Shown piece after piece: positions 9,431 through 54,664 of a stretch of 64,000 bases of DNA. Origin of the DNA: a virus. Both the position numbers and the translations under genes were made by a program. The stretch spans positions 607 to 64,606 of the IMG/VR virus record IMGVR_UViG_3300009873_000022; one strand, written 5' to 3'. Each line of letters starts with the position of its first letter. Within the stretch, counting starts at the first letter, position 1. A model generated the notes under the pieces. The model ran no database searches, was not told where the DNA came from, and saw nothing but the letters and a program-made list of their open reading frames with translations.

Positions 9431-10026
9431 TCACTCACCGGCACATACAGAGCATGTGTCTTGTCGCTATCAACGAGCTCATATCCATGACGCTCGAACC
9501 ACGAATGGAGATCACTGAGTGTCATTGAGTACATCTTTCGAAGAACGGCCGATGATACATCAATCACTATGACGGGCTTGTACTCCTTTATCATCTTCCA
9601 CGCTCCCCTCAGCGTTAGAAGCTCAGTTCCGTCGCCATGAATATGAATTATGTCGCAATGTGCCAACCGAAGCTCATCGAGCTCGATGCCCTCTATATCG
9701 CCGTCATCGTCCAGTACCAGATGAGAGATGCCGGATTTCTTCTCTGTCTTCAGAGAGTACTTCCCAGCCATGTCCATCACTGCCCTGCGCCATAGACATA
9801 CTGTGGTCGCGTAGCTCTTAGGACTCTGCGTCAGCCACAGTGAATAGAGCTTGGTGAATGCTTGGCCATGCTCAAATGAATGAACCTCTCCGAATCTTGA
9901 CCAGAATTCCCTTGACCACTCACCGTCTCCGGCTCCTATGTCAATAGCGCAATCCCTACCCTTCGTTCGATTGAGCGCCTCCTGGAGAATCCTTATCTCG
10001 GACTTTTCCTTTGAAGGGGATGACAT
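9427..10026 (-). CDS. FkbM-family methyltransferase (likely a sugar or hydroxyl O-methyltransferase)
   Basis: The motifs DIGAGDGEWS and CDIIHIHGDGTELLTLRGAWKMI match the FkbM pattern. The start is uncertain because the track ORF 9427..10098 overlaps the primase by 140 nt. Confidence 0.55.
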   Translation of the reverse strand: MSSPSKEKSEIRILQEALNRTKGRDCAIDIGAGDGEWSREFWSRFGEVHSFEHGQAFTKLYSLWLTQSPKSYATTVCLWRRAVMDMAGKYSLKTEKKSGISHLVLDDDGDIEGIELDELRLAHCDIIHIHGDGTELLTLRGAWKMIKEYKPVIVIDVSSAVLRKMYSMTLSDLHSWFERHGYELVDSDKTHALYVPVSD

Positions 10027-12118
10027 TCTGTGGGAGTTCTTGCTTGAAGCGTTTGAGCTTATCAAACCTGCGGAAGTGATCGACCCATTCTGCGTCATTT
10101 TTGGTACTCCATTCGTTTGCGTTCAACACTGCATACAGGGTAAGCGTACTGACATTGAGTCCATTTCGTATCTTCAGCCTTCTGTTCGGTACTCCCAGTC
10201 GCTTGAACACCACTCCCAGCGCATTCGGTGCCAGACTGGTTCTGGGCAATCTATGCTCTTCGACATATCGCGCCATGATCTGAACGATGCTGTCCATCTC
10301 GTACAGTTGAAGGTCAGGCAGCACCCCAGCAACCATAGTGAATGCCTCTGGAGCCTGCTTGAGTTTCGCGGCAAGCTCATCCATCGGATTCCTGCTGATG
10401 GCGATCATCTCATTCTTTGCTCTCGTGACTGGAGCATGCCCGTTGGGATTGAATTCAGTGAGATCGACGTGTTTGAGATGATTCAGTATCTGCGCTGCTC
10501 CATTCTCTTGGTCCAGCCATTTGTTGTATGCCTTGAAGAACTTCGCGCTCAGTGGGGTATCTGGTGCATTCACACTGAACACGCGCCTGTCTTTCTCGCT
10601 GATTGGCAGAGCATCACTGTGATTAGACGTAATGTACAGATTGGCATAGTTGCGCACTGTTCTGCTTGGCTGGTACTTCTCGCTCAGGTTGAGATCTTCA
10701 TTGGTGATGAATGAATTGAGCCGTCCCATGATGGACGCGCGCAGACTCTTCGAATAATTGACGTAGATCTCATCGATGAACACGAACTGACGTTCTGCAA
10801 TCCATCCATTGAACGAGCTTTCAATATCAGCGCCGTCTATGCGCCTGTAATTGTGTGGCCCGTACATCTGCTTGACGGGCTTTTCCACCAATGAGTTCTT
10901 TCCGATGCCGTGTCCGTATGAGTAGATGAATACAGCTTGCGCCAGCTTGGTCCCTACATGCTGCAATGGATAGGCGAACCACTGCATGAGCCACTTCTTT
11001 TCTGCATCGCGCAGATTGGACGTCAGATGATCGAACAACTCAAGCCACAGTACAGGCTCACCTTCTGCGGGCAGCAATTCAGGAGCCTGCCACGTATTCA
11101 CCACCTCAATTCCCTTGCCCTTCGGCCTGAACCTAGACTTCTTGCCCGGCTCATACACGACACCGTCTACGTCAGTTTCTGGCAGTCTACTCCTCATCCA
11201 TATGTCAATGGCAGGGACCATCTTCTTTGGATCTTCAGGTGATGGAACTCGGTATCTAGGACCGTACTCATTCAACAACTGAGCTCGCTCTCTGAATTTC
11301 TTGGCGATGACCGAGAAGTATTGACCCTGCTCCTTGACGAACACGAGCTCTTCATTCAAGGCCGATAGTGCATCTGCTCTACTGTCACTTCGTCGTGGGA
11401 GCTTCTCGAATGCTGCTCTGGCCTCTTTCGCAGACGTGAAGGTCGCCAGGTAATCATCGAGCCCGACCTTGACCTCGCCCTCTGCGCTCTCCAGATACAC
11501 AAAGCTCACGCTCTTGGGAGCAAGCGTGGCCAGTTCTGCGGACAGTTGATTCATGGCCAGACGAACGTGCTCGTTGTAGCTCAAATCACTGTCATAGCAG
11601 ATGTCTATTGCAGTGTGCTTCAGGTCAAACAGATTGAATTCTTCAAGGAGGGTGATCCCTCTCTTCTTAGATTTGAAGTTGAACACTCCGGCCAGTGCCA
11701 CAGTGGGAATTCCAGAAAGACAAGCCTTGATGGCCTTCTTCTCACCTTCTGTGATGCACAGGTACTTGAGCTTGATCTTCCCCGTCTGCTTGTCTATCGG
11801 CCAGTCATACAGCGGCGAGAAGTACAGGTGTGGAGCAGTGTTGGCGCGCTGATTGTACTTGAACGTACTCTTCTTGATATCACCTACCTTCCATCGTCCC
11901 TTCAGTAGTCTCAGTCTTGCGAAGTTGATCGGCTTCTTGTTGTGATCGAAGAATGGAATCTTGTACGCGCACGCTGTTCCGGCCTTCTTGACACCAAGGA
12001 ACTCCGCGATCTCCACGGAATTCATTGTCTTCAACTTCAGCTTCTTGGCGTGCTTCCACGGTATTCCACTTCTACGCAGGTCTGCCTTTAGCAGAGCGAG
12101 CGGTGATGGCGTTTTCAT
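9956..12118 (-). CDS. DNA primase/helicase (N-terminal Toprim-like primase, C-terminal SF3/D5-P4-type helicase)
   Basis: The Toprim-like motif is LCITEGEKKA. The P-loop is YSYGHGIGKNS. The protein is 720 aa. Confidence 0.8.
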   Translation of the reverse strand: MKTPSPLALLKADLRRSGIPWKHAKKLKLKTMNSVEIAEFLGVKKAGTACAYKIPFFDHNKKPINFARLRLLKGRWKVGDIKKSTFKYNQRANTAPHLYFSPLYDWPIDKQTGKIKLKYLCITEGEKKAIKACLSGIPTVALAGVFNFKSKKRGITLLEEFNLFDLKHTAIDICYDSDLSYNEHVRLAMNQLSAELATLAPKSVSFVYLESAEGEVKVGLDDYLATFTSAKEARAAFEKLPRRSDSRADALSALNEELVFVKEQGQYFSVIAKKFRERAQLLNEYGPRYRVPSPEDPKKMVPAIDIWMRSRLPETDVDGVVYEPGKKSRFRPKGKGIEVVNTWQAPELLPAEGEPVLWLELFDHLTSNLRDAEKKWLMQWFAYPLQHVGTKLAQAVFIYSYGHGIGKNSLVEKPVKQMYGPHNYRRIDGADIESSFNGWIAERQFVFIDEIYVNYSKSLRASIMGRLNSFITNEDLNLSEKYQPSRTVRNYANLYITSNHSDALPISEKDRRVFSVNAPDTPLSAKFFKAYNKWLDQENGAAQILNHLKHVDLTEFNPNGHAPVTRAKNEMIAISRNPMDELAAKLKQAPEAFTMVAGVLPDLQLYEMDSIVQIMARYVEEHRLPRTSLAPNALGVVFKRLGVPNRRLKIRNGLNVSTLTLYAVLNANEWSTKNDAEWVDHFRRFDKLKRFKQELPQNVIPFKGKVRDKDSPGGAQSNEG

Positions 12119-12136: not shown

Positions 12137-12589
12137 TCATTGTGCCGCGTATTCTTTGTCGAAGTTGTCCAGCGCCTCTTCTATGGTGTAGCCGAATCCT
12201 GCGATGCCTTCCTGTAGATTCTCACCGCACACTGCGCACCACATATTCCCGTCTCTCTGTACCCGCAGATCATTGGGTCTGTTGGGTACAGGACGAGGCT
12301 GGTCTACCCCTTCCAGTCCCTTTGTAGTGTCACCTGCCCACTTGGCGAACGTGTCAATCTTGGTAGCGCGGCGCTCTGCTATGCTTCCCCAGTTCAAATC
12401 AAATGCCACAGTTACCACGTACATCGCCGCCAGAACGTCTGCCATTTCCTCCTCCATTCGCTTTGAAAGAGGCCCTCGCCCATCTGGGTGAGTATCGCCA
12501 TGATAGTACGCCAGTTTCTTTCCACAAACCTGCGTCAGTTCTCCGCACTCTTCAATGAGCTTCACAAGCCCCTTCGCTGTCAATGCCAT
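12137..12589 (-). CDS. mazG: MazG-like nucleoside triphosphate pyrophosphohydrolase
   Basis: The motif EECGELTQ...EEEMADVLAAMYVVTV is the MazG EExxE/D signature. The protein is 150 aa. Confidence 0.75.
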   Translation of the reverse strand: MALTAKGLVKLIEECGELTQVCGKKLAYYHGDTHPDGRGPLSKRMEEEMADVLAAMYVVTVAFDLNWGSIAERRATKIDTFAKWAGDTTKGLEGVDQPRPVPNRPNDLRVQRDGNMWCAVCGENLQEGIAGFGYTIEEALDNFDKEYAAQ

Positions 12590-12608: not shown

Positions 12609-12860
12609 CTACCGTATGTCAGATTGCTTGCCCGTCCACAGTGATATCAATTCGTCGGCTTCTTCCCGGACCAAGATGCATTCACTCCCATCATCGAACG
12701 TGGCTACATAGTATGTGAGCTGTCCGCCGCAAATCGCCAGTGACAGTCCCAGCTTGTTCAGTGCGATGAATTCCCTGAGAGCATGTTTCTGCAGCTTCTC
12801 ACGAAACTCCGTCACTGTGCTCTTTGGCGTCAGATCAATTCTGGGAAGTCTTGGGTCCAT
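12609..12860 (-). CDS. hypothetical protein (first gene of the leftward replication operon)
   Basis: 83-aa ORF. Confidence 0.4.
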   Translation of the reverse strand: MDPRLPRIDLTPKSTVTEFREKLQKHALREFIALNKLGLSLAICGGQLTYYVATFDDGSECILVREEADELISLWTGKQSDIR

Positions 12861-13189
12861 GGTATCTCCGAATCCACGAATGTCTACCGGTCGCAGTTCG
12901 ATGAGTGTACCGTGGCGCTGTCATGGAGACCTGTTCATCCGGGCGAATGAGGACAGGAGGGAGCAAGAAATGACAGAGCCCTCACCGAACTGCGACAGCT
13001 AGACACTCGGAAGTCTGCTGACGATGAAAGACACTAAGAAAGATGGAGTCCCTTGATGCGAAGTGAGCGACTGCTGGTACATGGCCCACCTGCACGGGTT
13101 ACATGCTACACAGGGCAAAAGTGATTACAAGGCTGGCTTAAAAACCGGCCACATACAAAGGCTTAGGCGAATGTGTCGCAAAATACAGT

Positions 13190-13477
13190 GTAGTCAGTGT
13201 AGCCAGTCGCATTTTGAGTGACTGACTACGCGAAAAGTGACTAGTTTTGCAGTCTTTTGGTCTACTTTGTAGTCAGTGTAGTCAGTCATTCGACACAGAA
13301 AGTATATATATATCTATTTTATGGAATTATCATGTGCAGTGATATTTCCCAGTTACTTTTTACCCTTTTTGACTGACTACACTGACTACAAAGTGGAGCA
13401 AAGAGCCTAAAAACGAGGCCCGGCGATGTAGTCAGTCAACCAAAAAACGACTGACTACACTGACTACACTGACTACA
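13190..13477. repeat. array of a 9-mer GTAGTCAGT and its reverse complement ACTGACTAC, at least 10 copies including tandem doublets and a triplet, arranged around an AT-rich core (13300-13335)
   Basis: Copies are counted directly at 13190, 13221, 13269, 13278, 13372, 13381, 13427, 13451, 13460 and 13469. The central stretch is AGTATATATATATCTATTTTATGGAATTATC. Confidence 0.8.
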
Positions 13478-13489
13478 TTCACTTTTCGC

Positions 13490-14191
13490 TTGCAATCCCA
13501 ATATCTGGCCTGTATATACCGTGCGCATGGGCGGCTGAGCGGATATCACATCTGGTTCCACTCACCATCTTTCGCTTTCACTGCTGGCCTCCCATCACGT
13601 CTTTCAGTAGTGACCTCAGTAGATTCAGTTCAAAGCAGGAAACAATCTGTAGTGAAAGAACGACGGTCAAAACGAGAGAAAACGAAATCTCGTGATAGCG
13701 ACGTCCCTCTTTCATCTAAGACAGACAAATCCGCAGATAAACGCTCACTCCGCGCTCCCAACAAGCCTGGAGCGCTTACCCATAAAAAGCGACGTCACTT
13801 CTTGCGACTGCTCAGCAACGGAGTCACCGTGAGGGATGCGGCCAAGAAGATCGGCATCACCTCGGTATCCCTGTACGCTGCACGCAAGCGTGACGAGGAT
13901 TTCTCGCTCGCATGGGAAGAGGCATATGAACAAGGCACGGACCTCCTCGAGAAAGAGGCTGAGCGTCGTGCAATCAAGGGAGTCAAGGAGCCTGTATTCC
14001 ACCAAGGCAGAAAGATCGCGACTGTCCGCAAGTATTCGGATGTCTTGCTGATCTTCCTGCTCAAGGGACGTAGACCCGGCAAGTTCCGCGACAACGTCGA
14101 CATCACGTCTGGTGGAAATCCAATGGACAATGCGCTCAAGCAATTTGCTGAAGTCATTCGTAATGGAGCAGCGAGGTTGAAGGATGAGTAG
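13490..14191 (+). CDS. terS: terminase small subunit (Terminase_2/P27-like HTH)
   Basis: The motif LRLLSNGVTVRDAAKKIGITSVSLYAARKRDEDFSLAWEEA is TerS-like. The true start may be internal, for example GTG near 13653 after AGGAAA. Confidence 0.65.
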   Translation: MQSQYLACIYRAHGRLSGYHIWFHSPSFAFTAGLPSRLSVVTSVDSVQSRKQSVVKERRSKREKTKSRDSDVPLSSKTDKSADKRSLRAPNKPGALTHKKRRHFLRLLSNGVTVRDAAKKIGITSVSLYAARKRDEDFSLAWEEAYEQGTDLLEKEAERRAIKGVKEPVFHQGRKIATVRKYSDVLLIFLLKGRRPGKFRDNVDITSGGNPMDNALKQFAEVIRNGAARLKDE

Positions 14192-14672
14192 GCTGGCTGA
14201 ATTGGCAGGGTATACTCCCGCAACACTGCGCAACAGAGTCGCCATGCGCATAGAAAGGGAGCCAATGCTGCCCGCGCACGTAGCGCGCAGAAACAATGTG
14301 GCCCGAAAGAGACCGATGGTCACTAGGGCAGAGCTTCTGTCACTGATCACTACTCACAAGCTTGACTACGACAAGGTCGGTGAGATTCTCAGGATCAAAC
14401 CCTCTACGGTCAAGTATTACCTGCACATACATGGGATCTCTATTCGCTCGTTGCAGAGAGATCTAGGCATTGTCAAGAAGGACGCGCAACCTGTACCACA
14501 TCAGCCGATGACTGGGCTACCAATGCGGAACAAGGTCATTCGGTATTTAAATGAACGCCGTGACGGCGAGGTCAAAGAGATTGACTTCAGCGAGGCCGCA
14601 ATCGGCAAGTTCGGTACTCGGTTCACCAATCATGTATATCACGGGCGGAAGCTCACACTCGAGGACATCTGA
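14184..14672 (+). CDS. HTH DNA-binding protein
   Basis: 162-aa ORF with an ATGAGTAG start/stop overlap. A helix-turn-helix-like segment is ELLSLITTHKLDYDKVGEILRIKPSTVKYY. Confidence 0.45.
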   Translation: MSRLAELAGYTPATLRNRVAMRIEREPMLPAHVARRNNVARKRPMVTRAELLSLITTHKLDYDKVGEILRIKPSTVKYYLHIHGISIRSLQRDLGIVKKDAQPVPHQPMTGLPMRNKVIRYLNERRDGEVKEIDFSEAAIGKFGTRFTNHVYHGRKLTLEDI

Positions 14673-15220: not shown

Positions 15221-16800
15221 TGACCGCAGCACGCAAGAAAGTCGAGGTCGGGCTATCGGTGCATGACCGCATCATAGCCGAGCCCATCGAATTCTTTGCG
15301 AAGGACATCCTTCAACTCAAGCGTTTGAAGGAAGATCTGCCGACAGTCAACTGGGGACTCTCCGATTTCCAAGTGGAGATCGTTGAGTCCCTTTTTGATG
15401 TGGCTCGCTTGAAACTTGGCATGCCCACCAAGTTCAATCACACTGGCAAGCCATGGATAACAGTGCGTTCTGGCCACGGTCCCGGTAAGACCTTCAGTGC
15501 TGCGCTCGTTGCACATTGCTTCAATGCAGCCTTCCCCGGCCGCATCATGGTGACTGCACCGAAGCTCAAGCAGGTAACGGACCGCATATTCCCTGAGTTC
15601 CGCAAGCTTCACATGCGAGCTCAACCTTGGTACAGGGAATTCGTAAAGGTAGAGGCGACACGCGTCACATGGGCAGGTGACCGCGACTGGTGCATGATCG
15701 CAGACTCTGCGACAGCCCCAGAAAACATAGCGGGCTCGCATCATATGTATCAGTTGGTGATTGTTGAAGAAGCGACTGGCGTGGACGAAAAGCTATTCCC
15801 CGTCATTGAGCAGGCACTCACCACCGGCAAGATCCAAGTGATGCTGATGATTGCCAATCCCACGAAACGACAGGGCACTTTTGCAGACTCTCACCTCAAA
15901 GAGAAGCTGCATAAGTATTACTATCGCATCCATGTCAACCCGGAAAACGTGCCGCGCGTGTCCCGTAGTTCCTTGGAGCGCCTCGCTGCCAAGTACGGCA
16001 AGGACTCCCCTGTATATAAGGTGCGCGGACAAGGCGAGTTCGCCACTGAGGACGAGCGTCAGTTGATCTCGCTTCAGTGGATCGTGGATGCGCGTAATAG
16101 GGATGAGATGAATGATGGCTCACTGCCCATGCTGCGTGTTTCCGTAGACGTCGCAGACGGCGGCGCGGCAGTGAGCTCAGTGGTTGTAGCTCGCCACTAC
16201 GCGACGCGCGTGACCATGCTCAAACGAAAGAGATATTCTTTCGAGTCAACTACGGGACTTGAGAAGCTGGCTAATGCAGCCGAGGCTATCTTTGTTGAGT
16301 ATGGAGGGAGGAAGGACAGCTCTGACGACTTTGTCGTTGACGCCAATGGCGTCGGCGCTGGCGTAGCTGGCGAGCTCATTAAGCGTGGATACAATGTAGT
16401 GACCTACAAGGGCGGCACGGAAAGCTCCAATCCCAAGCTCTGGAAGAACAAGCGTACTCAGTCATATCTGAATCTGCGCAATTTCTTCCGTGATGGCCTC
16501 GTGTCCTTTGATGAGGGATTCATCGATGAGCATGCCATCAATGAAGAGGGAATCTCGGAGTGGGATGACTACGAGGCTCAGTTGTGCGCTGTTCGTACGG
16601 TGGATAACAATGAGCGGCTTGAGGAAATAGAAACAAAGAAGGCTCTCGTCGTGCGCGTAGGCATGACACTAGATGACGCCGATGCGACTGCAATGCAGTT
16701 CACTGGCGCAGAGCCTTCTATCATACCGAACCCTGAGGGAACACCGAAGGAGTCTGACATGATGGTCGAATACAGCACGATTCTGGAGGGGCTGTTCTAA
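15220..16800 (+). CDS. terL: terminase large subunit
   Basis: Walker A is GHGPGKT and Walker B is LVIVEEATG. A C-terminal RNase-H-like nuclease region with acidic residues is present. The protein is 526 aa. Confidence 0.85.
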   Translation: MTAARKKVEVGLSVHDRIIAEPIEFFAKDILQLKRLKEDLPTVNWGLSDFQVEIVESLFDVARLKLGMPTKFNHTGKPWITVRSGHGPGKTFSAALVAHCFNAAFPGRIMVTAPKLKQVTDRIFPEFRKLHMRAQPWYREFVKVEATRVTWAGDRDWCMIADSATAPENIAGSHHMYQLVIVEEATGVDEKLFPVIEQALTTGKIQVMLMIANPTKRQGTFADSHLKEKLHKYYYRIHVNPENVPRVSRSSLERLAAKYGKDSPVYKVRGQGEFATEDERQLISLQWIVDARNRDEMNDGSLPMLRVSVDVADGGAAVSSVVVARHYATRVTMLKRKRYSFESTTGLEKLANAAEAIFVEYGGRKDSSDDFVVDANGVGAGVAGELIKRGYNVVTYKGGTESSNPKLWKNKRTQSYLNLRNFFRDGLVSFDEGFIDEHAINEEGISEWDDYEAQLCAVRTVDNNERLEEIETKKALVVRVGMTLDDADATAMQFTGAEPSIIPNPEGTPKESDMMVEYSTILEGLF

Positions 16801-19800
16801 TGGCTGGCACAGTTCCACCGATTGAAGAAGAACCGAAAGAACAACCTCTGGATCAGGTAACTACCTACGATCTGAGCAATCTCACATGGGGATTTGCTGG
16901 ATACAGGTACAATCCTGATGAGCTGGCATCCCGGCGTGGGCTCAAGATCTACCAGCAGATGCTCACTGATGAGCAGGTCAAGGCTGTCGTAGAGTTCAAG
17001 CTCGCTGCTATCTTGTCACGAGGATATCAATTCGTGTTCGACGGCTCGAAGCTCTCGCCCGAAAAGCAGGAGGAGCGCTCGTGTCTATTCCAGCACATAC
17101 TGCTCAAGATGCGCGGATCCTTCATGGATGCCCTCGAAGGAATTGCCTCTGGCAGAGAATATGGGTTCAGTATCACGGAAAAAGTGTACGGTGAAGTGAC
17201 GTACGACGGGTCTCCATATGTCGGCATCAATCAACTGCTGACCAGAGACCCGAGTTCATTCCTGTTCAAGACTGATGCCTATGGAAACCTCGTCGAGGTC
17301 AAGCAGCAAGTGACGGGGCAGCAGGAAGTGATCATTGACCAGAGTCGAATGATACACTATGTCCATGCGCCCAAGTGGGACGCAATCTACGGCAGAAGTG
17401 ACCTCCGCGCTGCTCATCGCTCGTGGTATGCGAAGGATAACCTCGTAAAGCTGGAACTAATGTATCTCGAGAAGTTCGGCGGTGGAACTGCTGTAGCCAA
17501 GCGCATGACAGATGATGCTCCACGTTCTGGCACTCCTGATCATGTTCAGTTAGAGTTCGCGATCAAGAACATCTCGTCACTGCGCTCCATCGTTCTTCCC
17601 AAGGGAGTTGAGCTAGAGATTCTGTACCCGAACGTGACCACTCAGTTCCGTGAGGCAATCACGTACCACGACCTCGCCATTGCGAAGGCTTTGCTGGTTC
17701 CTAATTTGCTGGGATTGTCACATACAGGGCAAACAGGCGCGTTCGCTCAGTCGCAGACTCAACTACAGGCTTTCTTTTGGACACTGAACACCGACGCCAA
17801 TCGCCTCGAAGAGTGCCTCAATGAGCAGCTGTTCAGAGACCTCGGTGATCAGAACTGGGGTGACGGAGACTATCCACGCTTCAAGTTCAAGAAGGCTGAT
17901 ATCGAGCATACCAAGTGGATCGTCGCTACATGGAAGGAGATGCTCAATATCAAGGCTGTTCTTCCCACTGAAGATGATGAGAAGTTCCTTCGTGAGCTCT
18001 TGGAGATGCCGGAACGCGATGAAAACAGTGTCATCCTTGAAAACCCTGTTGAGCTGCGCAAGGAAGAGGAAGCCAAGAAGGCTCAAGCTGATGCACTCGC
18101 TGCGCAGCAAGCTCAACAGCAAGGGCAGCAGGATGCAGTGAAGAAGGAGCTCGCCGATCAAAAGGCAGCGAGCGATGCGGCGCAGCAGGATGTCAAGAAG
18201 TTGCAGAGTGACCTAGCTGCACTGAAGGTCGAGTCTACTAAGGTTCAACCGATCACAGTTGATATAGTCAGGGCAGAAATGGAGGCCGCGCTTAGGAAGT
18301 TTGGTTACAATCCCGATCAACCACGTGATGGTCACGGTAGGTTCGGCGAGGGTGGAGGCAGTGATTCAGGTAAGGACCACGAAACTGAGTTGTATGAAAA
18401 GACCGGGGTAAGACTTCGCATCTCTACTGTAAAGACGGACAAGGACCGGGTAGAGGCTGTTTCAAAGGCTACGATGGAGGTCGTTTCATCATTAGCAGAA
18501 AATCCCGCCATTGGTACGGTTCTTCGTAGAGACGGAGTGACCATAGAGATAGTCGATGGAAAGACTATCATGAATGAAGCACATGGTACTCAATCATTTG
18601 CCTCGTACAATGAAGCCACTGGAACTATCAAAGTTGCTGCTGGATTGAATTTATCCGGCACCGCAGCGACTCCAAGTATTGGAAAGTTTAATGTGGGTAC
18701 AGATTTCCGTACAGTATTGGCCCACGAGATAGGACACGCAGTGAGCCGTCGTATAGCTGTAGACGCACTCAAAGCTGATCCAAATGCCCTCGTTGGCGCT
18801 GCACTGTATAAGTCACTTGGGTCATCCCGAATTGAAAAGGGAGTCAGTGGATACGCAGCAAAGAATGCTAGAGAATTCATGGCGGAAGCATTCGCCGCGT
18901 ACACACACCCTGGATACTCATCTTCAAAAGGTTTGCCAAAAGAAGTAGAGCATGTATTTGAACTCGCTGGAGTTGGCGCTGGGACACGTAAGTTTGACAC
19001 AGAAGTAGTCCCGCACGGCAAGCTCTATGGAGTCCCGCTCACTACGTTTCAGCGCGCTACGATGCGAGTCAACTTCCAGACCATCGAGCAGAAGACGAAT
19101 ACCTTCGCTGACTCTGCCGTGCGCAACCTCGCTGCCATAGTGGCGAAGGCCGCACGCAGAGCGCTTGGAGACGATGAAAACATGAAGAGTCTGTTGGACG
19201 ATGACCCCTCGGATGTCGCGGCAATAGACGTAGGGCAGGCAGACAAGAGCAAGTTGCGAGCGACATACCGTGATCTACTGAACCAGTCGTGGAAGCTTGG
19301 AGCCAATCTCGCGAACAACGAACTGGCCCGTGCACGAGGCAGTGAGTTCGTCAATGCCACGGCCAAGTTCGCAAGTCTGTTGGACAAGGCATCGCAGTAC
19401 TTTGATACCCAAGCGTTCCGCATGGCAGGCGACACCTCTGATCAGGTGCGCAAGACCATTCAGCAGGAACTTCAGAATGGCATCAAACAGGGCAAGCCAC
19501 TCACGGATGTTCGCGTCAACATATGGAACAGGCTCGTTACCAAGGGCATGACATCGCAGTCTGCCGTCAAAGATGTAGAGGATGACGATGCGGTGAATGA
19601 GGCACTAGACCTGCTCTGGGCAGATAGCGAAGCCGGAGCAGTGGCTTACTTGAATACTCTTGTTCGCACCAATACTTTCGAGGCGCTCAATGAAGCGAGG
19701 TATGCGCAGTTCACTGATCCTGAGCTTGGTGACTTTGTGGTTGCCTTACGCTATGCCGCAGTCCTCGATAGCTCAACGACCAACATCTGTGAAGAGATGG

Positions 19801-19961
19801 ATGGAAAAGAGTTCACCACGGACAACCCCATCTGGGATGAGTACCGACCACCGAATCATTTCAACTGCCGCAGCATCCTTGTGCCAATCACGGCGGTGGA
19901 TGGTTGGGATGGCAAAGAGTCACCGGAACCGAGCCTCTCGCCGCAGGAGGGATTCAAATGA
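16800..19961 (+). CDS. portal protein (Mu gp29/DUF935-like) fused to an HExxH metallopeptidase-like insert and a C-terminal MuF/SPP1 gp7 head-morphogenesis domain
   Basis: The protein is 1053 aa. A central A/Q-rich coiled coil is present. The HExxH motif is VLAHEIGHAV, followed by EFMAEAF. The C-terminal MuF motif is NICEEMDGKEF...PPNHFNCRSILVPI. Confidence 0.75.
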   Translation: MAGTVPPIEEEPKEQPLDQVTTYDLSNLTWGFAGYRYNPDELASRRGLKIYQQMLTDEQVKAVVEFKLAAILSRGYQFVFDGSKLSPEKQEERSCLFQHILLKMRGSFMDALEGIASGREYGFSITEKVYGEVTYDGSPYVGINQLLTRDPSSFLFKTDAYGNLVEVKQQVTGQQEVIIDQSRMIHYVHAPKWDAIYGRSDLRAAHRSWYAKDNLVKLELMYLEKFGGGTAVAKRMTDDAPRSGTPDHVQLEFAIKNISSLRSIVLPKGVELEILYPNVTTQFREAITYHDLAIAKALLVPNLLGLSHTGQTGAFAQSQTQLQAFFWTLNTDANRLEECLNEQLFRDLGDQNWGDGDYPRFKFKKADIEHTKWIVATWKEMLNIKAVLPTEDDEKFLRELLEMPERDENSVILENPVELRKEEEAKKAQADALAAQQAQQQGQQDAVKKELADQKAASDAAQQDVKKLQSDLAALKVESTKVQPITVDIVRAEMEAALRKFGYNPDQPRDGHGRFGEGGGSDSGKDHETELYEKTGVRLRISTVKTDKDRVEAVSKATMEVVSSLAENPAIGTVLRRDGVTIEIVDGKTIMNEAHGTQSFASYNEATGTIKVAAGLNLSGTAATPSIGKFNVGTDFRTVLAHEIGHAVSRRIAVDALKADPNALVGAALYKSLGSSRIEKGVSGYAAKNAREFMAEAFAAYTHPGYSSSKGLPKEVEHVFELAGVGAGTRKFDTEVVPHGKLYGVPLTTFQRATMRVNFQTIEQKTNTFADSAVRNLAAIVAKAARRALGDDENMKSLLDDDPSDVAAIDVGQADKSKLRATYRDLLNQSWKLGANLANNELARARGSEFVNATAKFASLLDKASQYFDTQAFRMAGDTSDQVRKTIQQELQNGIKQGKPLTDVRVNIWNRLVTKGMTSQSAVKDVEDDDAVNEALDLLWADSEAGAVAYLNTLVRTNTFEALNEARYAQFTDPELGDFVVALRYAAVLDSSTTNICEEMDGKEFTTDNPIWDEYRPPNHFNCRSILVPITAVDGWDGKESPEPSLSPQEGFK

Positions 19962-45308: not shown

Positions 45309-45344
45309 GAAGGAGGGCCGCGAGTTACCACGGCCCTCACTTCA
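45309..45344. terminator. bidirectional hairpin between convergent lysis and leftward-arm transcription units
   Basis: The hairpin is GAGGGCCGcgagttaccaCGGCCCTC, with an 8-bp stem. Confidence 0.45.
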
Positions 45345-48508: not shown

Positions 48509-48735
48509 ACTCTCCTAACCGACGGTAGTGGCACAGACTGATTCCACTTCTCTTCTTTCATCAACCTCTTTACGATGTTGGTCGCAGACTCCGGACTTTC
48601 TGCGACGTAGGTTGCGTAGTCAGTCGGGTTCCCATACCCCTCATTCCGTGAAAAATCTTTTTCGTGTGTAGTGATAACCCATCCATTAGATGCTTGGCGA
48701 ATTTCGATTACTCTGATTACAGGCTTATCCGACAT
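48505..48735 (-). CDS. hypothetical protein
   Basis: 76-aa ORF. Confidence 0.35.
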   Translation of the reverse strand: MSDKPVIRVIEIRQASNGWVITTHEKDFSRNEGYGNPTDYATYVAESPESATNIVKRLMKEEKWNQSVPLPSVRRV

Positions 48736-49760: not shown

Positions 49761-50085
49761 GCCCGCTACAATCCGGGCAGGCACTCGGGTCACGCGGCTT
49801 GTCAACGTTCATGGCGGCGGACTGCTCCATGTTTTGCCGGATGCGCTCCTGAGTTTCCCTTTCCTCAAGGATCTCAATGTACTTCTGGAGATAGTGCTGT
49901 GCCTTCTTCAGATCCTCGATTCCATTTTTCTTTTTGTGACGGAACACATACTTGGTGATGTTCCCTTGGAAGTAGTCGAGATTGAAGATATTCACTACAT
50001 CCCAGTGTTCAATGCCTCCGGTCTGATAGTGACTACCACCGACTTGAGTTTCGTTTGCCTTACTTGTAGACTGGCCAACCATGAT
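49720..50085 (-). CDS. DUF3310-like protein
   Basis: The motif GGSHYQTGGIEHWDV is present. The internal start MVGQ avoids overlap with the HD gene. Confidence 0.4.
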   Translation of the reverse strand: MMVGQSTSKANETQVGGSHYQTGGIEHWDVVNIFNLDYFQGNITKYVFRHKKKNGIEDLKKAQHYLQKYIEILEERETQERIRQNMEQSAAMNVDKPRDPSACPDCSGLLGAHRAWCPRCY

Positions 50086-50629
50086 AGGTCTCCTGTACCA
50101 AAGCGAGTGAGTAACGGGCCTCGAAGGCCATGCTGAATACCTCATAGAGCCACTTGGTCTGCTCATTGATATCCATGAGTCCACGTTCGCGTATGGCAGT
50201 GAGTCCATTCATGGCAACCGTGGCCATGATTCTGTTTCCACTGTCTACCTCCTCCATTGAGAAGATCACCAGCTCCATGATGTCACAGAATTTAAGTACG
50301 CGCTTCTCAATGCCACTCAGCTCCGTGTGCATACTGAATTCATTCTTGATCCGCTCCTCGACTACGCGAAGCGCTGACTCGAGTTCTGGGTGACGCCACT
50401 TGACCGGAGATGGAACATCACCAGTGATCCCCTCTGGTGCGTCATGGTACAGTGCTGCTCGCCACAGTGCTTTCGATGCGGTCGGTAGCACAATATCAAT
50501 CAATGCCAGTATCCCGAACGTGTGCTCACCAACTGTCTGTTGATGCACAGGAGGAAGAGTGTGAAGCCGCTTTACTCTGGCAACCACTCGCATCAACTTC
50601 AGCCTGTCGAATTCTTGTTTACCGTACAT
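50060..50629 (-). CDS. HD-domain phosphohydrolase (YfbR-like 5'-deoxynucleotidase family)
   Basis: H...HD...D is present as HTFGILALID...YHDAPEGITGD. Confidence 0.7.
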   Translation of the reverse strand: MYGKQEFDRLKLMRVVARVKRLHTLPPVHQQTVGEHTFGILALIDIVLPTASKALWRAALYHDAPEGITGDVPSPVKWRHPELESALRVVEERIKNEFSMHTELSGIEKRVLKFCDIMELVIFSMEEVDSGNRIMATVAMNGLTAIRERGLMDINEQTKWLYEVFSMAFEARYSLALVQETYHGWPVYK

Positions 50630-50630
50630 G

Positions 50631-51665
50631 TCAACCTCCCTTCACAGACATTCTGCGCTGAAGCCATTCAATGCAGGCGATCTTCCAGTCTTCCGCCTTG
50701 CAGTGTGCAGCCAGATGGTTGATTGCCTCTTGGGTTTGTCCGGCCTTGTGCATGTCCCACGCCAGTTGAATGGGGAAGAAGACATCCAGGAAGTACGAAT
50801 CATAGTGCCCACACTGTTCCCTGTGCGCGCCTTCCATCACTTCTAGCAGTTGGAACAACCACTCTTCCCATCTTGTGCCATTGATCAATGGGTACGGCTT
50901 GATGTTCTGTGTGGCGTACCTATCCACGCTCGCCGGGCTGGACCGCACCTTCAACCATGCGTCCTGTTGAGTGTAGACATGAAAGCTGTCGCTCACTTGG
51001 ATGTATGACCCTACCTCTACGCGCAAGGCGCGAGCCACGAATTCTTGAATGGTGCTGAACTGTACTGCGTTCGCTCCGTATGCTCCCCAGATGGCGTCGT
51101 TGCTGCGGCAGCTTACCGTGATGTTCAACCTTCCATCGCGCAACTTGAAGAAGATCAGATCATTGCACGGGATATCCTTCGAATTAGCCCCGAGGTCTGC
51201 AATTGGATCCCAGATGGCCACCACTGCGCGACGAGTATCTGGATCGTCACCAAGAAGTCTGATGACGCGACGGAGCTGATCAATTCCATGGAATGCCCTG
51301 ATTCGAAAGCCGTAAGCTCCGTGGAATGTCTCTCCATTGTCACTGTACTCAGACATCTTCTTGTTATAGCGAGTCAGTGTCGCTACGTCATTGCGCCCAT
51401 CGATGATCCACAGAGCCTCCATGAAATGGAAAAACGGATTCGCGTCTCTTTCTGGCGAAAAGAGCACACGCTCATCCGGTCGCAGGTACTCTGTAATCCA
51501 CAGACCCTTGTACTCCGCTGTCTCCATTCCACGGGGAGATATCACCCTCCAATTCTCCGAGTCTTGAATGGCCTCGACCGCACTGATCCTGAGATTGTTC
51601 AGTGCCTGATTCACATTTCTTACCACGACTGATCTAATCACTTCTTTCTCCTTTTGATTTCCCAC
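50631..51665 (-). CDS. thymidylate synthase-family enzyme (ThyA or dUMP hydroxymethylase; Cys nucleophile retained with His replaced by Asn)
   Basis: The protein aligns by eye to ThyA. LWIIDGRND aligns to LWFLQGDTN. AYGFRIRAF aligns to VYGKQWRAW. DPDTRRAVVAIWDP aligns to DPDSRRIIVSAWN. IPCNDLIFF aligns to APCHAFFQF. RSNDAIWGAYGAN aligns to RSCDVFLGLPFN, and the uracil-specific Asn is kept. Confidence 0.8.
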   Translation of the reverse strand: MGNQKEKEVIRSVVVRNVNQALNNLRISAVEAIQDSENWRVISPRGMETAEYKGLWITEYLRPDERVLFSPERDANPFFHFMEALWIIDGRNDVATLTRYNKKMSEYSDNGETFHGAYGFRIRAFHGIDQLRRVIRLLGDDPDTRRAVVAIWDPIADLGANSKDIPCNDLIFFKLRDGRLNITVSCRSNDAIWGAYGANAVQFSTIQEFVARALRVEVGSYIQVSDSFHVYTQQDAWLKVRSSPASVDRYATQNIKPYPLINGTRWEEWLFQLLEVMEGAHREQCGHYDSYFLDVFFPIQLAWDMHKAGQTQEAINHLAAHCKAEDWKIACIEWLQRRMSVKGG

Positions 51666-52648
51666 GGTCTAAGTACAACTTCTGACAGCGTCCTTATCTT
51701 GGTAGCGCCATCAACGGCCGTTCTATCACTGCCGGTAGGCATTCTCAATTCTTTCTTGCCCTTCTTGTCGGGTAGCAGCCCAACACGGTATGACTTGGCA
51801 TCACACACGTTGCACGGCTTCAACGAAGCTCTGTCACCTTGCATCAAGAATCTTCTTGCCGCCATGAACTCATTACCGTTCCACACGGCATCGAGGCCGT
51901 CCTTCACGATGTTTCCACACTGATATACGCCGCGCCAGTCATTACAGCAGATGGCCACTTCTCCATCCCATCGAATGGATAACTCACGGAATGGCTTCGC
52001 GCATCTGGCCTTCAACGGTTCTTTCAGTCCGGGGGAGCCAGAGCCGCAATGATTGTTCAGTGTCGAGTGTGTCCCGGCCTGCGCTACACTGATATCCTGT
52101 ACGCGAATGAATACTCGCGCCTTGTGCCCGTATCTGTTGTGTGGTGACCAGTCCTTTTCTTGTGGATAGGCATGTACTTCGAACACGTTTGAATCGAACG
52201 ATGAGAATTGTTCTGTGTTCGAAAACAGAATCGGGTCAATCTTGTCCTTGATCTTCACATACTCATAGGCATCGAATGCAAATACATTCAAGCCTGCATC
52301 AAACAGCTCTCTCAATGACTCGAACACTCCGGGTGGACGCAATAGCCCACCACCATTGGATGTCATCATCAACTGTACATTCGGCAGATACCTGCGGAAT
52401 GCCTTGACGATCTTGATGTAGTTAGGGTTCATCGTCGGTTCGCCATGCATTGCGAACTCAATGCGAGGATTCCACCCTGCCTCTGCAATCTGACCAGCGA
52501 TACTCTTGGCAGTAGCCACGGTCATGAACTTGAAATTCTTCTCCTTCTGTGTGCGGATACCCTGTAGCCCACAGAAGTCGCAATAGAGGTTGCAGCCCTC
52601 ACTGAGTTCCACCTGTACGGCGAACGGAGCTTCTTGTCTGTACTTCAT
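51638..52648 (-). CDS. radical SAM enzyme with a SPASM-like C-terminal domain
   Basis: The CxxxCxxC motif is EGCNLYCDFCG. The C-terminus has CCNDWRGVYQCGN...CNVCD. Confidence 0.8.
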   Translation of the reverse strand: MKYRQEAPFAVQVELSEGCNLYCDFCGLQGIRTQKEKNFKFMTVATAKSIAGQIAEAGWNPRIEFAMHGEPTMNPNYIKIVKAFRRYLPNVQLMMTSNGGGLLRPPGVFESLRELFDAGLNVFAFDAYEYVKIKDKIDPILFSNTEQFSSFDSNVFEVHAYPQEKDWSPHNRYGHKARVFIRVQDISVAQAGTHSTLNNHCGSGSPGLKEPLKARCAKPFRELSIRWDGEVAICCNDWRGVYQCGNIVKDGLDAVWNGNEFMAARRFLMQGDRASLKPCNVCDAKSYRVGLLPDKKGKKELRMPTGSDRTAVDGATKIRTLSEVVLRPWEIKRRKK

Positions 52649-53673: not shown

Positions 53674-53792
53674 CTATGGGCTCCCAGCGATATCGCCTTA
53701 CAATGAACACACTGGTAGACACCACCCTTGAGATGATTGAACTTGAACTCCCATTTGCAGTTAAGGAATAGACACCTGATTGAGTACCTCAT
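53670..53792 (-). CDS. possible 40-aa Zn-ribbon microprotein, translationally coupled (ATGA overlap)
   Basis: The sequence MRYSIRCLFLNCKWEFKFNHLKGGVYQCVHCKAISLGAHR has CxxxxC...CxxC. The longer track ORF 53670..53918 overlaps the upstream gene. Confidence 0.25.
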   Translation of the reverse strand: MRYSIRCLFLNCKWEFKFNHLKGGVYQCVHCKAISLGAHR

Positions 53793-54664
53793 ATGATCCC
53801 TTCCCCTTTCAACTTGCTCACGTTCAATTGCAACTCGAAATTGAAATGCGGCAACTCGTACGGAAAAGCCTTGCGCCAATTGATACGAACATCGGTGCGT
53901 TCTTTCATTCCTTCCCACGATGTAGCACCGATCACTTTCTTTCGAACAACGGTTACGTACTTGGGATGCGCATCACGCAGCATGTGTGCCGCCTTGGCCT
54001 GTGTCTCTTCGTTACGGTAGATACTGCACCCTCCCTTCATATTAGACCCGGTCTGGTTCCAGCAGTAGTCGTAGACACAGGCATTTGGAATTCCACGCTC
54101 AAGAAGCGACAATGTCACGTGAAAGTCCTCCATGACCCTGTACTCATCGAACCTTAGCCCGGTCTTGGCAAACTCTTTGATGTTGAACCCATGAACATTG
54201 TTGATGCGCGTACACCATCTGTAAGGGCTTAGATAGTGTGATGAATCTACACGGCTAGACAACCCTGTCTGCACGATTCCCATGCTGAGTGGCCTGACCA
54301 TCATGTAGAGCATGTGCCTCATGTCAGGTGCAGTGGCCTTCACTAGTTTGATGGCTCTTGGTCTTTCTCTACGGTAGAAGTAGAGGTCGTCATCGAACAT
54401 CAGAGCATACTTGGTAGGGCAATGATCAAGTATCCACTGTCTGGTCTTGCCAATCCCCTTCTTTGATATACCCAAGACCTTGAATAGTGAATTTGGGTGA
54501 TGCTGTCTGTATTCAGATACCTCATCAATTGGCACTACGACCCTGACCTTGCCAGCCTCTGAAAGTTCTACTGGCATGGCATAGAACGTTCGCACATCTG
54601 CGGCCCTACCCCTACTGGGAATGTAGATGGTAGTGTCTTCCATCAACTCTTCGTACGAACTCAT
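53789..54664 (-). CDS. putative GT-A fold glycosyltransferase (DxD-like MFDDDLYFY)
   Basis: The N-terminus IYIPSRGR is Rossmann-like and an acidic DDD motif is present. The protein is 291 aa. Confidence 0.4.
   Translation of the reverse strand: MSSYEELMEDTTIYIPSRGRAADVRTFYAMPVELSEAGKVRVVVPIDEVSEYRQHHPNSLFKVLGISKKGIGKTRQWILDHCPTKYALMFDDDLYFYRRERPRAIKLVKATAPDMRHMLYMMVRPLSMGIVQTGLSSRVDSSHYLSPYRWCTRINNVHGFNIKEFAKTGLRFDEYRVMEDFHVTLSLLERGIPNACVYDYCWNQTGSNMKGGCSIYRNEETQAKAAHMLRDAHPKYVTVVRKKVIGATSWEGMKERTDVRINWRKAFPYELPHFNFELQLNVSKLKGEGII

Follow-up and report, generated by a model that had tools for sequence, protein, structure and literature searches.

The alpha protein of phage P4 combines a primase, an SF3 helicase, and a C-terminal winged-helix origin-binding domain, and the P4 ori is composed of direct and inverted short repeats. 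The P4 iterons have the sequence TGTTCACC, and P4 additionally needs a second repeat element, crr. In SV40 (large T) and the papillomaviruses (E1), inverted short sites located next to easily melted DNA direct two SF3 hexamers, which results in bidirectional unwinding. The Rep protein of SaPIs is an SF3 helicase as well, and its C-terminal winged helix reads short iterons (PMC9371898). SaPI origins contain 6 to 12 iterons and an AT-rich centre, with at least two iterons per side in opposite directions, and a pair of Rep hexamers is proposed to load itself, with one hexamer per side (PMC9371898).

Analysis of a 64,000-base stretch (the window) of a 64,606-base metagenomic contig revealed a 9-mer repeat array at the point where two gene arms diverge; the two ends of the window showed no overlap. 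This position had been proposed from the sequence alone and was confirmed by the gene map: a minus-strand early/replication arm extends to the left and a plus-strand late arm to the right. On the minus strand left of the array, two small genes (12609 to 12860 and a MazG-like gene at 12137 to 12589) are followed by a primase-helicase gene (9956 to 12118), and the early arm further encodes a ligase, a helicase, and a family-A DNA polymerase. The genes on the right are terS, terL, and a gene for a portal-MuF fusion. The latter is a single ORF of 1053 aa (16800 to 19961), in which a Mu-type portal is fused to a Mu F-like head-morphogenesis domain; the segment separating the two weakly matches the anthrax lethal-factor N/C domain (E = 0.0017, below the cutoff). 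The array is located in a non-coding region of about 750 to 790 bp, 5' of the early operon and 1.07 kb from the start of the primase-helicase gene, with the two small genes between. Judged from its sequence features, it is probably the phage replication origin and would belong to the type in which iterons and a DNA-unwinding element serve self-loading SF3 helicases.

The distance between the array and the small terminase gene terS (13610 to 14191, plus strand; phrog_4044, E = 5e-35) had to be revised. The start of terS is likely GTG 13610 or GTG 13652, because the profile match begins at residue 88 of the TTG-initiated ORF from 13490, because the terS gene call in L056, a relative with a primase-helicase 85% identical to that of the window, starts at the equivalent of about 13610 to 13650, and because the segment from 13490 to 13609 carries indels of 1, 4, 6, and 2 nt relative to L056. 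The array is therefore separated from terS by about 133 to 175 bp. The spacing of 10 bp given in the sequence-only reading rested on the TTG extension of the ORF at 13490 and has to be abandoned. The description, in the same reading, of the product of 14184 to 14672 as an HTH protein is unsupported, since neither Pfam nor PHROG yielded a match for this ORF at E ≤ 0.01 and no HTH was detectable. Between the array and terS lies a block (13512 to 13545, GTATATACCGTGCGCATGGGCGGCTGAGCGGA) that is almost identical in L056, with diverged non-coding DNA on its flanks. This block is a candidate late promoter or a candidate for the real terminase recognition site.

A count on both strands revealed 10 exact copies of the 9-mer GTAGTCAGT or its reverse complement within 13190 to 13476, and a scan allowing one mismatch added an eleventh copy (GTAGCCAGT at 13199). 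A twelfth copy, AAATACAGT at 13181, is decayed and matches at 5 of 9 positions. The rest of the 64 kb contains a single exact copy (48616), and no second cluster is formed by exact or one-mismatch copies in the window. The chance expectation for the whole window is 0.47 copies, and none of 100 shuffles reached 11 copies. The sites follow the plan 3+1+2 / 85-bp AT core / 2+1+3, with the orientations (+)(-)(+), core, (-)(+)(-). The left outer triplet (13181 to 13207, plus strand) comprises the decayed copy (13181 to 13189), an exact copy (13190 to 13198), and the one-mismatch copy (13199 to 13207). It is followed by a single iteron in the opposite orientation (13221 to 13229, minus strand; ACTGACTAC on the plus strand), which is kept in L056, and by an inner doublet of two GTAGTCAGT copies in 9-bp register (13269 to 13286, plus strand), the end of which lies 43 bp from the symmetry centre. 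To the right of the core, a doublet inverted with respect to the left one starts 43 bp from the centre (13372 to 13389, minus strand), followed by a single exact copy in the opposite orientation (13428 to 13436, plus strand) and by the outer triplet, which reads as three times ACTGACTAC on the plus strand (13450 to 13476, minus strand). The two-fold symmetry is centred at 13329, and the site distances on the two sides (43/43, 100/99, and 122/121 bp) agree within 1 bp. The sequence-only reading had described at least ten copies in both orientations, occurring as singles, tandem doublets, and one triplet in a roughly symmetric arrangement; the number and the layout were borne out, and the symmetry proved to be tighter than "rough."

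The spacers are partly symmetric too; their inverted arms measure 44 nt (89%) and 48 nt (81%). Because of this dyad symmetry, the array as single-stranded DNA folds into one 290-nt hairpin (-78 kcal/mol, z = -11.8). The sole Rfam match of the region, a sub-threshold miRNA, is likewise attributable to the dyad. Comparison of the region with 50,697 phage records by megablast and blastn revealed no match, and matches to the 9-mer in the literature were restricted to primers and oligonucleotides. The host factor DnaA was considered as a binder of the 9-mer and rejected; the match to the DnaA box is only 5/9, and the hosts are spread across many phyla.

Two clusters flanking a centre, together with the strong overall dyad symmetry, would also suit a centromere-like partition site or a cruciform/hairpin site for recombination or telomere resolution. 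The parC site of plasmid R1, with two short-repeat clusters flanking a promoter, is the model for the former, and one distant relative carries a ParB_N-domain gene opposite its array. Such a ParB_N-DUF4417 neighbour was found, however, in only one or two distant relatives, and no ParA, ParM, ParR, protelomerase, or recombinase was detected in the flanks of the window array. With a polymerase, a helicase, and a ligase of its own, the phage appears from its genome to be lytic, and the symmetry centre is an imperfect palindrome. A role in partition or resolution is thus highly improbable.

The iterons surround an AT-rich core of 85 bp (13287 to 13371), the proposed DNA-unwinding element. The AT content of the core is 70.6%, compared to 48.7% for the window. 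It practically coincides with the AT maximum among all 85-bp segments of the 64 kb, which starts 1 bp away, and 0.04% of the segments are as AT rich. The core includes (TA)5 at 13303 to 13312, the only run of four or more TA units in the window. A (TA)n-rich core of 35 bp had been noted before; a sub-core of this length does exist (13296 to 13330, 83% AT), but the real core is the complete 85 bp between the inner doublets. An A-tract element, GAGCCTAAAAACGAGGCC, was seen between the iteron clusters on the right (13400 to 13420), with a mirror partner at about 13241 to 13265. GGCC(T/G)AAAAA-like elements occupy the equivalent place in L058, L059, L062, L144, and L145, which together with L057 are relatives at 37 to 46% identity. 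The GGCC(T/G)AAAAA element sometimes lies within a small palindrome (GCCTTTTTATAGGC). As a candidate, the A-tract element at 13400 to 13420 may be a bend or a site for an accessory factor.

It is reasonable to assume that the region also holds the divergent early and late promoters, although scanning for sigma-70 promoters and terminators was uninformative for the region and detected no sigma-70 promoter in the core; the promoter type of the host may differ from sigma-70. The array could also be read as an operator at which a transcription factor or an autoregulating initiator controls divergent promoters, with no role in replication. Its position exactly at the divergence of two transcription units agrees with this, symmetric sites around an AT-rich, TATA-containing core suit back-to-back promoters, and plasmid iterons (P1 and pSC101) double as operators. 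Twelve sites over 290 bp and the most extreme AT core of the genome nevertheless exceed the needs of a typical operator, no candidate regulator was found among the flanking ORFs, and in two unrelated elements described below (L005 and L034) arrays of the same 9-mer occur between or behind genes that run in the same direction rather than at a divergent promoter. A purely regulatory array is therefore considered unlikely, while regulation as a second function of the array is possible.

Alignment of 13186 to 13480 with the corresponding region of L056 revealed that 97 of 99 iteron columns are identical, compared to 117 of 200 other columns (58.5%; Fisher p = 3e-15). Every iteron of the window is kept in place in L056, where the left outer cluster also has three copies, the outermost of which is degenerate (TGTAGCCTG). 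Identity is only 57% in the AT core, where the TATATATA run is nevertheless retained. Judged by this alignment, the iteron sites are under selection.

Arrays of the same kind were found across the phage family. Like L056, the relatives L057, L058, L059, L062, and L144 have, upstream of the primase-helicase gene, repeats in two orientations that surround a TATATA-type core; a weaker two-orientation cluster of this kind is present in L145, and two-orientation arrays also occur in many of 80 more distant metagenomic relatives. The array lies directly upstream of the primase-helicase gene in the relatives. Only one-sided tandem repeats were found in L060 (TACCCTCT) and L142 (TAAGTAGT), and a clear array is absent in L061, L143, and the cultured relative AXL3, which has the same synteny as the window without clear iterons. 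The repeat differs between relatives: TGTAGTCACGT in L058, TGTAGTCAT in L062, TGTAGCTATGT in L059, TGTAGCCATGT and TGTAGACATG in L144, TGTAATTTA in L145, AAGTGGGACAC in L057, and GTGATAACG (14 times) in L068, with further variants in L076, L090, L105, and L108. Searching IMG/VR for relatives of the primase-helicase yielded only two matches, at 28% identity, neither of which carries the motif. In L024, a relative at 28% identity, a different set of repeats at 15-bp spacing (44 to 120) is situated about 800 bp upstream of the primase-helicase gene, an arrangement that appears to fit the family rule of repeats upstream of this gene.

The type of gene found opposite the array bears on a further interpretation, namely, that the array is a pac site, with TerS bound to both clusters of repeats and an initial cut by the large terminase within the AT core. 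Precedents are known from SPP1 (pacL/pacR) and from P1, in which two clusters of short repeats (hexamers) flank the cut region, a central stretch of about 90 bp, near the terminase genes. The position of the array 133 to 175 bp upstream of terS, the common synteny of terS and array in the family, the likeness of two clusters around a central region to P1 pac, and portal and TerS types that suggest headful packaging all point in this direction. The array is retained, however, next to at least three unrelated kinds of TerS. In this place, the window and L056 have the phrog_4044/HTH_23 type, L058 to L062, L143, and L144 have an Sf6_terminase type (14 to 19% identical to TerS of the window), and L073 and L110 have a Terminase_2 type. 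It also persists with neighbours not recognised as TerS, i.e., a ParB_N-DUF4417 gene in L085 and co-directional genes without a family match in L068. The TGTAGTCA core is common to the window and L058/L062, whose TerS proteins share no more than about 14% identity; searching IMG/VR for TerS relatives found none. Moreover, the 9-mer has no GATC-type methylation motif, arrays of GTAGTCAGT in unrelated contigs adjoin primase-helicase genes without an adjacent terS, and the conserved block at 13512 to 13545 could serve packaging, or late transcription, instead. Since the terS neighbour is swapped while the TGTAGTCA core is retained across two TerS families, the distribution indicates that the array tracks the primase-helicase gene and not the terminase. 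The sequence-only reading had left the choice between an iteron origin and a TerS-bound pac site; the origin is favoured because the arrays follow the primase-helicase, and the pac alternative is disfavoured and regarded as improbable.

The proposed initiator is the 720-aa primase-helicase encoded at 9956 to 12118 on the minus strand, which consists of a DUF3854 Toprim-like part and a DUF5906 SF3 helicase. A profile built from 28 family members matched 6K9C, the primase-polymerase of phage NrS-1, in the helicase part of the latter (E = 1.3e-30). Among all PDB chains at E ≤ 1, this profile retrieved only the NrS-1 primase and an unrelated thioredoxin and no SaPI Rep. For the C-terminal domain, a helix-helix-helix-hairpin was predicted with confidence, and the model matches winged-helix DNA binders, including ORC/Cdc6; the fold comparison retrieved nothing specific to the origin-binding domain of P4 alpha. 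The primase-helicase is thus described as an SF3 helicase with a predicted C-terminal winged helix, at approximately residues 596 to 690 (10049 to 10333). This predicted winged helix is the most variable and least conserved segment of the protein. Among L058, L062, L059, and L144, the helicase cores are 72 to 82% identical, the iterons are 1 to 2 bases apart, and the C-terminal domains are 47 to 64% identical. The window and L058/L062 share the TGTAGTCA core, yet their winged helices are only 18 to 29% identical. From these comparisons, winged-helix identity does not appear to simply track iteron identity.

Arrays of GTAGTCAGT in two orientations around AT-rich cores were also detected in unrelated contigs, comprising L001 to L023 (IMG/VR), L026, L034, L040, L044, L045, and L046. 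The carriers include genomes or MAGs of Streptococcus suis, Bacteroidaceae, Obscuribacterales, Terriglobia, and Acidobacteriota. Scanning of the genome collection yielded 30 matches, compared to an estimate of about 17 expected by chance for an 18-mer; therefore, only loci with multi-copy clusters were used. The arrays usually adjoin a D5/VapE-type primase-helicase gene, and no terS was present beside those examined. In L005, which belongs to a group of 18 related IMG/VR contigs, the array is flanked by the genes of a BT4734_N/PriCT_2/VapE primase-helicase and of a ResIII helicase; in L034 (S. suis), it immediately follows the 3' end of a D5_N-DUF5906-Pox_D5 gene. In both, the order and orientation of the 9-mers are as in the window, and the array is immediately 3' of the primase-helicase gene. 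In L010, the array follows a PrimPol-DUF3987 gene. A separate array, of GTAGTCA with an AT-rich centre, was observed between ftsZ and recO in a Bacteroidaceae MAG (L051, 4070 to 4215), with no primase-helicase gene within the 8 kb examined.

Neither tblastn (E < 0.01) nor all-against-all BLASTP clustering revealed a protein shared by the window and the other GTAGTCAGT loci, and hmmsearch with the family winged-helix profile revealed no shared domain. Three composition-matched control doublets were found in 0, 7, and at least 100 viral contigs, and both orientations occurred within 300 bp in none of them, compared to 23 of 23 GTAGTCAGT contigs. With the control 9-mers, tandem doublets were common in coding DNA, whereas two-orientation clusters were not. 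Because of this difference, recurrence of GTAGTCAGT in unrelated elements by chance appears unlikely. A portable origin "word," TGTAGTCA(GT), used by phages and satellite-like elements across very different bacterial phyla in the plan ++ - ++ / AT / -- + -- with primase-helicases that lack detectable sequence similarity, might account for the recurrence, but is a doubtful proposal. If it were true, either a so far unrecognised, fast-evolving DNA-reading module would move between SF3 initiators together with the origin, or the binder would be something other than the primase-helicase; in that case, the 6+6 site plan would directly reflect, at the sequence level, how a double hexamer loads.

A long-range stem with 29-nt arms and an inner hairpin was identified at 12877 to 13009, probably on the minus strand, directly upstream of the first early gene. 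The surrounding block (12861 to 13010) is 94% identical to L056, far above its flanks. The same stem shape was found in the same place in nine relatives, formed by unrelated sequences (z of -2.6 to -9). RNAalifold predicted no structure from the MAFFT alignment of the upstream stems because the stem sequences do not align; therefore, single-sequence folds were used. Rfam contained no match for this stem. The stem may function as leader RNA, as an RNase III site, or as a single-strand priming/initiation element; it adjoins the proposed origin and may be part of it or a separate element.

If the array is the origin, the C-terminal winged helices of the primase-helicase would bind the iterons, with one hexamer per arm: six winged helices would read the six sites of one arm, and a second hexamer would read the other arm. 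The AT core between the two hexamers would melt, the two helicases would then travel apart, and the Toprim-type primase domain of the primase-helicase would prime synthesis for the phage DNA polymerase. Since the early and late units diverge on either side of the array, binding of the initiator would probably influence their promoters as well. For the cumulative GC skew, the minimum was found at 13819, about 350 bp to the right of the array, and the maximum at 45317, where the two gene arms converge. These extremes are consistent with the proposed origin but confounded by the switch in gene orientation at the same points.

The window also contains genes for a dNTPase-like protein (50060 to 50629), a thymidylate-synthase-like protein (50631 to 51665), a radical SAM protein (51638 to 52648), and a beta-glucosyl-HMC-type glucosyltransferase (53789 to 54664), in addition to the MazG-like pyrophosphohydrolase at 12137 to 12589. 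By its predicted functions, this set is typical of DNA base hypermodification. If the phage DNA is modified, recognition of the iterons would have to act on modified bases.

The array provides a candidate origin, testable at base resolution, for an uncultured phage family with a DUF3854-DUF5906 primase-helicase, and both of these domains are still listed by Pfam as domains of unknown function. The 6+6 plan predicts one hexamer per arm for self-loading SF3 helicases, a question that is open for the SaPI Reps (PMC9371898). The iteron series TGTAGTCA, TGTAGCTA, TGTAGCCA, and TGTAGACA in close relatives, together with the diverging winged helices, offers material for mapping a recognition code. 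For annotation, the locus is a caution that repeat arrays beside terS should not be called pac sites by position alone.

Among known systems, the origins of SaPIs and other PICIs closely resemble the array. In both cases, two repeat sets flank an AT-rich centre with at least two repeats per side in opposed orientations, and the 12 sites of the window fall within the range of 6 to 12. An SF3 helicase with a C-terminal winged helix, in some cases joined to a primase, serves as the initiator (proposed, with a predicted winged helix, in the case of the window), and the origin is linked to the initiator gene. Specificity varies by lineage in SaPIs/PICIs, and the repeats of the window family also differ by lineage, but the window and L058/L062 have TGTAGTCA in common despite divergent winged helices. 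The differences are that the iterons are 9 bp long here and 5 to 6 bp in SaPIs/PICIs, that the SaPI origin lies 3' of rep whereas the array lies 5' of the operon in the window, that the primase domain is DUF3854/Toprim-like and the protein has no detectable match to SaPI Rep structures, and that the carrier is a phage of about 64.6 kb, apparently lytic, rather than a satellite. The locus resembles P4 in that one polypeptide carries DUF3854, DUF5906, and a predicted winged helix and in that the short repeats stand in both orientations, but a crr-like second array is absent from the window, which has only the stray copy at 48616. The symmetric 6+6 plan suggests the same logic as in SV40 and the papillomaviruses, although the origin-binding domain of these viruses is not a C-terminal winged helix, their sites are pentamers or hexamers, and their core is much more compact. 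Plasmids of the Rep_3/RepA class (P1, F, pSC101, and R6K) have direct repeats of 17 to 22 bp in one orientation, phased at about 22 bp next to an AT region, whereas the repeats of the window are 9 bp long, occur in both orientations in a 9-bp register, and stand on both sides of the AT core. In P1 pac, the terminase recognises hexamers that contain Dam sites, whereas the repeats of the window family do not follow the TerS family and are also found next to primase-helicase genes of unrelated elements. The array is thus most likely a further example of an already known origin type, with a site plan that is unusually clean and symmetric.
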